Shown here one piece after another: positions 34,153-34,567 of a stretch of DNA of 64,000 nucleotides (within the stretch, counting starts at the first letter, position 1; the number at the start of each line of letters is the position of its first letter). The stretch is from a virus. Lineage: Duplodnaviria > Caudoviricetes. The stretch lies in the IMG/VR virus record IMGVR_UViG_3300042558_004043, one strand, 5' to 3'. The notes under the pieces are model-generated. The model had not been told where the DNA came from and ran no database searches. It saw only the letters and a list, made by a program, of their open reading frames with translations. The position numbers and the translations under genes were made by a program.

Positions 34153-34245
34153 GAGGCTCGTCAAATGGGTGACGATTTATTAAATGAGGGGTGTAGATAC
34201 CTCAATGATACCGAGGTTTAATAAAGTAGTGACGTTAAATAACCC
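34153..34245 (+). ncRNA. unknown structured RNA (unit E)
   Basis: TCGTCA/TGACGA, TTTATTAAA/TTTAATAAA, TGAGG/CCTCA helices between T2 and T3. Confidence 0.5.
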
Positions 34246-34248
34246 AAT

Positions 34249-34357
34249 AGTCAGGTGGCGGAATTGGCGCCAGTAGTTGTATCACGAGTTCAGTAATCCT
34301 CCCAATCGGACGTGAATCAAGGAGGTGACTATACAAGTTCGATTCTTGTCCTGACTA
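34249..34357 (+). ncRNA. tRNA-like RNA without an anticodon arm (T3, 109 nt)
   Basis: AGTCAGG/CCTGACT acceptor, ACAAG-TTCGATT-CTTGT T-arm, shortened D-arm, central pseudoknot-capable insert. Confidence 0.65.
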
Positions 34358-34360
34358 CAA

Positions 34361-34567
34361 TGAGTAAGAGATACTCAGAGTCTTCGAATCAAGACTTAAA
34401 GAATGATTCCGCAGAATGTCTACGGCGCGAGTGGGACATCGTGGGATAAAGGGATAGACACATTCCCTCCCAGTAGTGTTGGATGTTTTTAACGGGTAAG
34501 ACCAGCAGGTTTTTAAGAAATAGAAAACCGATAAATCTACTCACCAATAATCTCAAGGTGGGGAAAC
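34361..34567 (+). ncRNA. unknown structured RNA (unit F, ~205 nt)
   Basis: series of hairpins between T3 and T4, no ORF. Confidence 0.55.

Follow-up and report, generated by a model that had tools for sequence, protein, structure and literature searches.

A widespread, strongly conserved phage RNA family of ~211 nt that fits between tRNA and tRNA-like elements and may be released by tRNA maturation

Comparative analysis of an RNA array in a phage genome fragment indicated that one unit of the array, F (34359 to 34569, + strand), is a full-length member of a widespread and strongly conserved family of noncoding RNAs of ~211 nt that has no entry in Rfam 15. F lies between a tRNA-shaped element, T3, and a tRNA gene, T4, and a second unit, E, lies between T2, a tRNA-like gene, and T3. 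Our preferred reading, which we hold with a probability of roughly 0.6, is that F would be cotranscribed with its neighbors, excised by the tRNA-maturation enzymes of the host, and then persist and act in trans, with E as a by-product. The window referred to below is the whole stretch of DNA that was analyzed (64,000 nucleotides), and all positions are positions in the window unless a related locus is named.

F belongs to a widespread family of noncoding RNAs

Relatives of F were first found by blastn against 116 loci that had been fetched via the shared T-arm and acceptor sequence, and every full-length relative among these loci adjoined a tRNA. A pattern based on the 3' motif of F matched at least 118 IMG/VR contigs. 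Collection by this pattern inflates the apparent invariance of the motif; a second pattern, which did not use the 3' motif, detected 14 further copies carrying the same motif, and as these copies were found independently and keep this 3' end, the invariance is not merely an artifact of collection. Overall, more than 130 phage contigs of IMG/VR carried the family, each record with one copy. Sixty-six nonredundant copies were aligned, helices were identified from mutual information and built by hand, and a covariance model, R1, was constructed; the realignment with R1 (A3) comprised 67 copies. R1 matched F with a score of 202.4 bits over model positions 1 to 216. This was the only match in the window (exactly 34359 to 34569) and in the phage record, and each of the 67 loci likewise had a single match. 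Because the window copy of F helped to build R1, the weight rests on the 81 other matches and on the covariation counts.

No Rfam 15 family overlapped F or E in the window at an E value of ≤10, and 16 relatives had no overlapping match to their F copies at an E value of ≤1. A blastn search with positions 33500 to 34700 detected no match in 50,697 GenBank phage records. Among 185,579 prokaryote species represented by one genome each (GTDB), 19 pattern matches were obtained, which is approximately the number expected by chance. The sole clear match to F in this set was on a 711-nt contig binned with a Nanopelagicales metagenome-assembled genome (MAG) (124 bits), and a weak match was present on a contig of a Sediminibacterium MAG (25 bits). 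F was always on the same strand as the tRNAs and was never seen outside RNA arrays. The open reading frame (ORF) that begins with the 5' ATG varied from 4 to 50 codons in length and was missing in 12 of 67 members, indicating that F is not coding; a small gene at this ATG was rejected on the same grounds.

Covariation defines a compact fold with pseudoknots

The fold predicted for F has about nine helices and two supported pseudoknots, with a third pseudoknot that is only weakly supported. In the 67-copy alignment, standard pairs occupied 89% of cells, compared to 75% in shuffles, and changes on both sides of the helix were detected at 41 of 51 pairs. The covariation score was 0.378 versus 0.148 for shuffles (0 of 500 reached 0.378), and slid partners scored no higher than 0.111. 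This extensive compensatory covariation indicates selection on the RNA fold. RNAalifold, when applied to a plain MAFFT alignment, produced a poor structure of 12 pairs and was replaced by mutual information and covariance-model realignment.

All elements of the fold are on the + strand. P1 (34362 to 34366 with 34372 to 34376; whole element, 34362 to 34376) encloses a conserved AGAGA loop; it was 98% paired, and four of its five pairs covaried. The adjoining region (34379 to 34409), in which covariation was also detected, contains P2 (34379 to 34384 with 34391 to 34396) and the pseudoknot PK1, formed by the P2 loop (34386 to 34390) and a partner 15 nt downstream of that loop (34405 to 34409). 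All five pairs of PK1 covaried, and 84% of cells were paired. A variable domain follows (34410 to 34439), with a stem (34410 to 34412 with 34425 to 34427) and a possible but weak pseudoknot (34416 to 34420 with 34435 to 34439; ATGTC/GACAT). The next region (34442 to 34479) comprises P4 (34442 to 34445 with 34469 to 34472), P5 (34451 to 34453 with 34466 to 34468), and PK3, in which the P5 loop (34458 to 34461) pairs with 34476 to 34479; pairs 85:113 and 102:119 of this region were among the top covarying pairs by mutual information. Both PK1 and PK3 covaried even though neither is part of R1. P7 (34494 to 34495 with 34502 to 34503) and P8 (34506 to 34513 with 34524 to 34530; GGTTTT/AAAACC) occupy 34494 to 34530, again with covariation, and a tertiary pair between 34499 in the P7 loop and 34536 exhibited a switch between U-A and A-U. 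The 3' hairpin, P9 (34540 to 34545 with 34557 to 34562), has an invariant AAUCUCA loop and a tail, GGGGAAACAU, that stops right at T4 (whole element, 34540 to 34569).

Complementarity exists between the P1 loop (AGAGA-U) and the invariant loop of P9 (A-AUCUC-A). In the P1 loop, only changes from A to G were seen, which would keep the pairing with U, and the P1 and P9 loops were altered together in a divergent lineage (L029). These few observations tentatively suggest a loop-loop contact between P1 and P9 that would bring the two ends of F together. A long-range closing helix between a 5' GAGUA and a 3' UACUC, as drawn by RNAalifold, was discarded, as P1 covaries locally and the 3' segment is constant.

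The original prediction had described both E and F as hairpin rich and had named five hairpins in F. All five are present, and four of them (GAGTA/TACTC, AGTCTT/AAGACT, AGGGA/TCCCT, and GGTTTT/AAAACC) correspond to conserved covarying helices; the fifth, ATGTC/GACAT, is the weak pairing of the variable domain, with 65% of cells paired. Hairpin richness as such was modest for F (folding energy z = -1.8, single sequence) and not significant for E, the folding energy of which equaled that of shuffles (z = 0.06). The main support for F is comparative.

Genomic setting of the RNA array

The source record is an 81.7-kb IMG/VR virus with a CheckV completeness of 28%, and it is thus a piece of a very large phage; a type-9-secretion sorting tail on a neighboring protein indicates a Bacteroidota host. 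No plausible genes were found between 33584 and 34711, and Rfam and ARAGORN detected two tRNAs in this interval. In the rest of the window, these programs detected a genuine GOLLD RNA (38789 to 39182), a tRNA-Met 3' of GOLLD, and a tmRNA on the opposite strand. This GOLLD match, 4.2 kb downstream of the array, was the only one in the window, and there were no ROOL matches.

According to a pattern list, TATATTTG (33587 to 33594) is the sole + strand match from 33587 through 35062 to TAnnTTTG, a promoter element of the Bacteroidota type; it lies 5' of the array, and the array itself contains none. This motif is likely to mark the start of a single transcript that would run through the whole RNA array. 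No strong terminator was found inside the array. The first strong intrinsic-terminator-like hairpin downstream (35234 to 35257, + strand; 10 bp followed by a T run) lies past an ORF at 34711 to 35211 and is a possible end of this transcript.

The window contains six tRNA or tRNA-like genes (25810 to 39273), all of which end with a discriminator A plus C, and none encodes CCA, so that the 3' cut must be endonucleolytic. A U was present at position -1 in five of the six. The acceptor stem and T arm are nearly identical among T2, T3, and T4, and up to eight copies of this common sequence were detected in one related locus (L056).

Further modules were observed in and near the array. A 94-nt piece of the leader units (33893 to 33986) was missing in a syntenic phage, L136, and was skipped by RNA-library contigs of two runs, in which 33892 was joined to 33987; this piece therefore behaves like an optional module. 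It contains a 24-nt segment, AATGTGTTGTTCCCTTGAGAAAGG (33898 to 33921), of which copies with 96 to 100% identity directly follow the 3' ends of tRNAs in many unrelated loci, with four copies in one of them (L030). The region that separates the RNA array from the GOLLD locus encodes a 150-amino-acid protein (36486 to 36938) matching the cREC_REC "cyclic-phosphate processing receiver" domain (PF20274; E = 1.7e-19), and this protein may have a bearing on the chemistry or repair of RNA ends.

The elements flanking E and F

T2 (34078 to 34150, + strand), the 5' bracket of E, was called by ARAGORN as a tRNA-Lys(CUU) and has a G at position 33, and T4 (34570 to 34643, + strand), the 3' bracket of F, was called as a tRNA-Ile(UAU) and has a U at -1. 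Their Rfam tRNA scores, a weak 36.7 and a good 60.7 bits, respectively, pass the RF00005 gathering threshold of 29. T3 (34249 to 34357, + strand) borders both units, E on its 3' side and F on its 5' side. It had no match to the Rfam tRNA model at an E value of ≤10 and was not called by ARAGORN with either the default settings or the intron mode at default stringency; a call was obtained only at an 80% threshold and with a contrived 16-nt intron. The T3 sequence folds into a 7-bp acceptor stem, a class II (Leu-like) D arm, and a canonical T arm, with a 60-nt arm at the place of the anticodon arm. A fair conclusion is that T3 is tRNA-like and not a tRNA. The recognition target of RNase P and RNase Z is the stacked acceptor stem and T arm, and as T3 keeps these parts, it is a credible, putative processing signal.

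A reading of the sequence confirmed that E is bracketed by T2 and T3 and F by T3 and T4, with 1 to 3 nt to spare. The limits proposed beforehand (34153 to 34245 for E and 34361 to 34567 for F, with spacers of 2 to 4 nt) were correct to within 1 to 3 nt, and the designation of T3 as tRNA-like was borne out by the folding of its acceptor stem, D-like arm, and T arm.

T3-like sequences were also observed in very deep contigs from river metatranscriptomes (depths of 175 to 685), most of which have a G or A at 34278, and the sequence upstream of T3 in these contigs differs from E. In one 98-nt contig, an Illumina adapter was located right after 34354, within the T3 acceptor stem; this was not taken as a mapped end.

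Junctions between F and its neighbors

The position of F relative to tRNAs was examined with ARAGORN and Rfam only, as our own crude detector of acceptor stems and T arms had a high false-positive rate upstream of F. Among the matches listed, 67 of 118 copies had an ARAGORN tRNA starting 3 to 8 nt past the 3' motif, and the tRNAs following these 67 copies represented 15 standard anticodons plus one that was uncalled. For the 118 copies among the matches listed, ARAGORN placed the end of a tRNA at the 5' end of F in 41 copies and a tRNA on both sides in 25. An Rfam tRNA adjoined the 3' end of F in 13 of the 16 loci checked and was flush on both sides in six. T3-like tRNA-shaped elements were present alongside many of the remaining copies. 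A U directly preceded the downstream tRNA at 37 of 40 unique junctions, and U at -1 is the usual context for RNase P. In approximately 15% of the family, another structured module, not a tRNA, lies directly 3' of F, and hence a flanking tRNA is not obligatory on that side. The constant context of F is a tRNA-shaped element on each side and no particular neighbor, as expected if the flanks define its ends.

These junctions bear on whether F could function in cis within the precursor, either as a leader for the folding, processing, or stability of the next tRNA or as an insulator between tRNAs. Such a role would fit the tightly fixed spacing between the 3' motif and the next tRNA (3 to 6 nt, with 5 nt the most frequent), the restriction of F to the tRNA strand and to RNA arrays, and a possible resemblance of the conserved AGAGA loop to the AG-rich motifs by which T-box leaders dock the tRNA elbow. 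The spacers between tRNAs in the same arrays are equally short, however (L034), and thus F is not unusual in its tight spacing; neither T-boxes nor other Rfam families matched F in the window or its copies in 16 relatives. Furthermore, the downstream partner varies in anticodon and is not always a tRNA, and each genome has only one F, although its array may hold up to about 20 tRNAs that do without one. We consider a function in cis rather unlikely and favor excision of F from the precursor followed by action in trans.

Several other modules were observed at such junctions. In four loci (L123, L181, L201, and L210), F is followed, instead of by a tRNA, by a small motif consisting of GGGCTCCCTTAATAG, a hairpin with a CTGA loop, and TATATAGGGGGCGAA. 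A freshwater-1 RNA (RF02979; score of 71 bits, threshold of 72) was detected 26 nt upstream of the F copy in L155 (positions 295 to 356 of that locus, - strand), so one catalogued "orphan" motif inhabits the same arrays. A further module of ~200 to 215 nt, extending from CGTTCCGACTAATCATCGG to GGGTGTTAACAT, is located between a tRNA-like element and a tRNA-Glu in syntenic relatives (L136, 6752 to 6950; L043, reverse strand, about 3050 to 3260), and it was also present in an RNA contig as a loose end after 34152. This module may be a further tRNA-bracketed RNA family.

E is a variable spacer

E (34152 to 34248, + strand) is the 97-nt spacer between T2 and T3. No relatives of E were found in 230 related loci, IMG/VR, or metagenome contigs. 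An IMG/VR scan with a 16-mer from E produced 30 matches, none with more similarity to E, and scans of metagenome contigs with two 19-mers produced 0 and 5 matches, none of which extended beyond 21 nt. The syntenic phage L136 retains F, the leader units, and a T3 of 97% identity, with an unrelated 64-nt spacer at the place of E. RNA-library contigs contained at least two further, different sequences just 5' of T3; these contigs match the window from 34248 onward. In the syntenic L043 group, E, the middle of T3, and F are missing, and other modules are present instead. On this comparative evidence, E is a hypervariable, lineage-specific spacer.

The original prediction treated E, like F, as a mature RNA set free by cuts at the flanking elements. 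For E, this was not upheld, given the lack of conservation and the replacement by other sequence in close relatives; if E is cut out by the same cuts as F, it is most likely a by-product that is degraded. As E is exactly bracketed and yet not conserved, exact bracketing by tRNAs is not by itself evidence of function. A function of E as a small stable RNA, or as a terminator or attenuator after T2, appears very unlikely. Its exact bracketing, a 9-bp long-range pairing of UUUAUUAAA with UUUAAUAAA, a possible loop-to-tail pairing of UGGGU with ACCCA, and the unchanged presence of E in one RNA-library contig would all suit a stable RNA, and a weak hairpin at 34158 to 34175 followed by TTTATT had been flagged as terminator-like. 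Set against these features are a folding no better than that of shuffles, the results of the searches for relatives, and the alternative spacers of L136 and the RNA contigs; furthermore, there is no promoter motif 3' of E from which transcription could restart.

The exchange of modules in these relatives raised the alternative that F itself is a selfish mobile module, or the relic of one, that targets the junctions of tRNA genes and has no job for the phage. The neighbors of F vary among phages as if it were mobile, it is missing from the L043 group and present in L136, and identity between relatives begins and ends exactly at tRNA ends (loose ends at 34247 to 34248). This behavior is not confined to F, however, as every module of these arrays shuffles at tRNA boundaries. 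Moreover, F is present as a single copy per genome, it showed neither terminal repeats nor target duplications nor a recombinase associated with it, and the compensatory covariation described above points to a maintained fold. A selfish origin is thus highly improbable.

Array sequences in RNA libraries

Parts of the stretch were detected in 24 metatranscriptome runs from rivers, lakes, and other freshwaters; the assembled contigs do not report RNA ends, strand, or level. They cover 33586 to 34360 and parts of F, with DNA carry-over being possible, and pieces of the F family were present in contigs that two studies had assembled from RNA libraries of lakes and freshwater. The coding flanks (34611 to 35000 and most of 33300 to 33585) had no contig cover, and missing cover is not evidence. 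One contig spans units D, T2, E, and T3, which does not prove a single transcript, and another extends beyond the 3' end of the F copy of a relative. Contigs that cross junctions indicate the presence of either unprocessed precursor or contaminating DNA. These contigs show only that sequences of the array occur in RNA libraries.

A model for the release of F

In the model that we favor, a single long transcript composed only of RNA units (the leader units, T2, E, T3, F, and T4) would be produced from the array. A cut by RNase P where the downstream tRNA begins would create the 3' end of F (...GGGGAAACAU-OH), and the 5' end of F (CAAUGAGUA...) would result from an RNase Z-type cut in the upstream tRNA or tRNA-like element, just past its discriminator. 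Due to its compact fold, F would probably persist after its release and act in trans, and its ends may be tied together by the loop-loop contact between P1 and P9. The same cuts would free E, as the probable waste product of this pathway.

The idea that tRNA punctuation defines both units was thus sustained in part: in dozens of divergent phages, F begins and ends where tRNAs or tRNA-like elements of whatever identity end and begin, whereas E is not sustained as a product. For F, punctuation is a good model derived from comparative anatomy, albeit unproven. In mitochondrial tRNA punctuation and in MALAT1-mascRNA, RNase P and RNase Z set the ends of neighboring RNAs by cutting at tRNAs or at elements that resemble them, and T3 would serve, as in the latter, as a tRNA-like processing signal. 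Unlike F, those systems are eukaryotic or organellar and their products are mostly mRNAs or rRNAs. The context of F is an ordinary bacterial-type polycistronic tRNA transcript, and hence a special mechanism is unneeded. The label "mitochondrial-style" in the original prediction can be dropped; the nearer model is the ordinary processing of bacterial and phage tRNA operons, as in the tRNA region of phage T4.

The tRNA region of phage T4 also yields small stable RNAs, RNAC and RNAD, of unknown function (PMC3014915; PMC9697503). F is similarly phage encoded and derived from a tRNA region, but it is larger and pseudoknotted, it occurs in uncultivated freshwater phages, probably of Bacteroidota, and its excision is only proposed; no relation in sequence or structure between F and RNAC or RNAD was detected. 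Both of these phage T4 RNAs are matured by host tRNA-processing enzymes. A processing product with a function of its own is also known from Escherichia coli, in which the 3' external transcribed spacer of glyW-cysT-leuZ is a sponge for small RNAs. The E. coli spacer, a short RNA devoid of structure, works through base pairing, whereas F has a large conserved fold, and E lacks conservation that would suggest such a role. The GOLLD (RF02032) and ROOL (RF03087) RNAs are ornate phage RNAs located beside tRNA islands (PMC12286853). F resembles them in being structured, rich in pseudoknots, and abutting tRNA genes; it differs in its size of 211 nt, compared to 400 to 800 nt, and has no match to either model.

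Significance

F adds a well-supported and widespread family to the few structured RNAs of phage tRNA islands, namely, GOLLD, ROOL, and RNAC and RNAD of phage T4. At ~211 nt, it is within reach of structure probing, crystallography, and cryo-electron microscopy, and its exact fit between tRNA genes leads to a simple, testable model of processing. The usual view of phage tRNA islands is that they supply codons, and a newer view is that they provide defense against host tRNA nucleases. The array described here looks like a modular RNA operon in which F would be one tool. A bolder proposal, to which we give only a small chance, is that F represents a new class of RNA, compact and with multiple pseudoknots, that has its own activity. 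Once freed from the tRNA array, it might dock on tRNAs, the ribosome, or a tRNA-targeting defense nuclease of the host, as a decoy or inhibitor, or it might be a ribozyme. If this were true, the tRNA arrays of giant freshwater phages would be operons of RNA "tools," including F, the 215-nt unit before tRNA-Glu, and GOLLD, and not only cassettes for codon supply.
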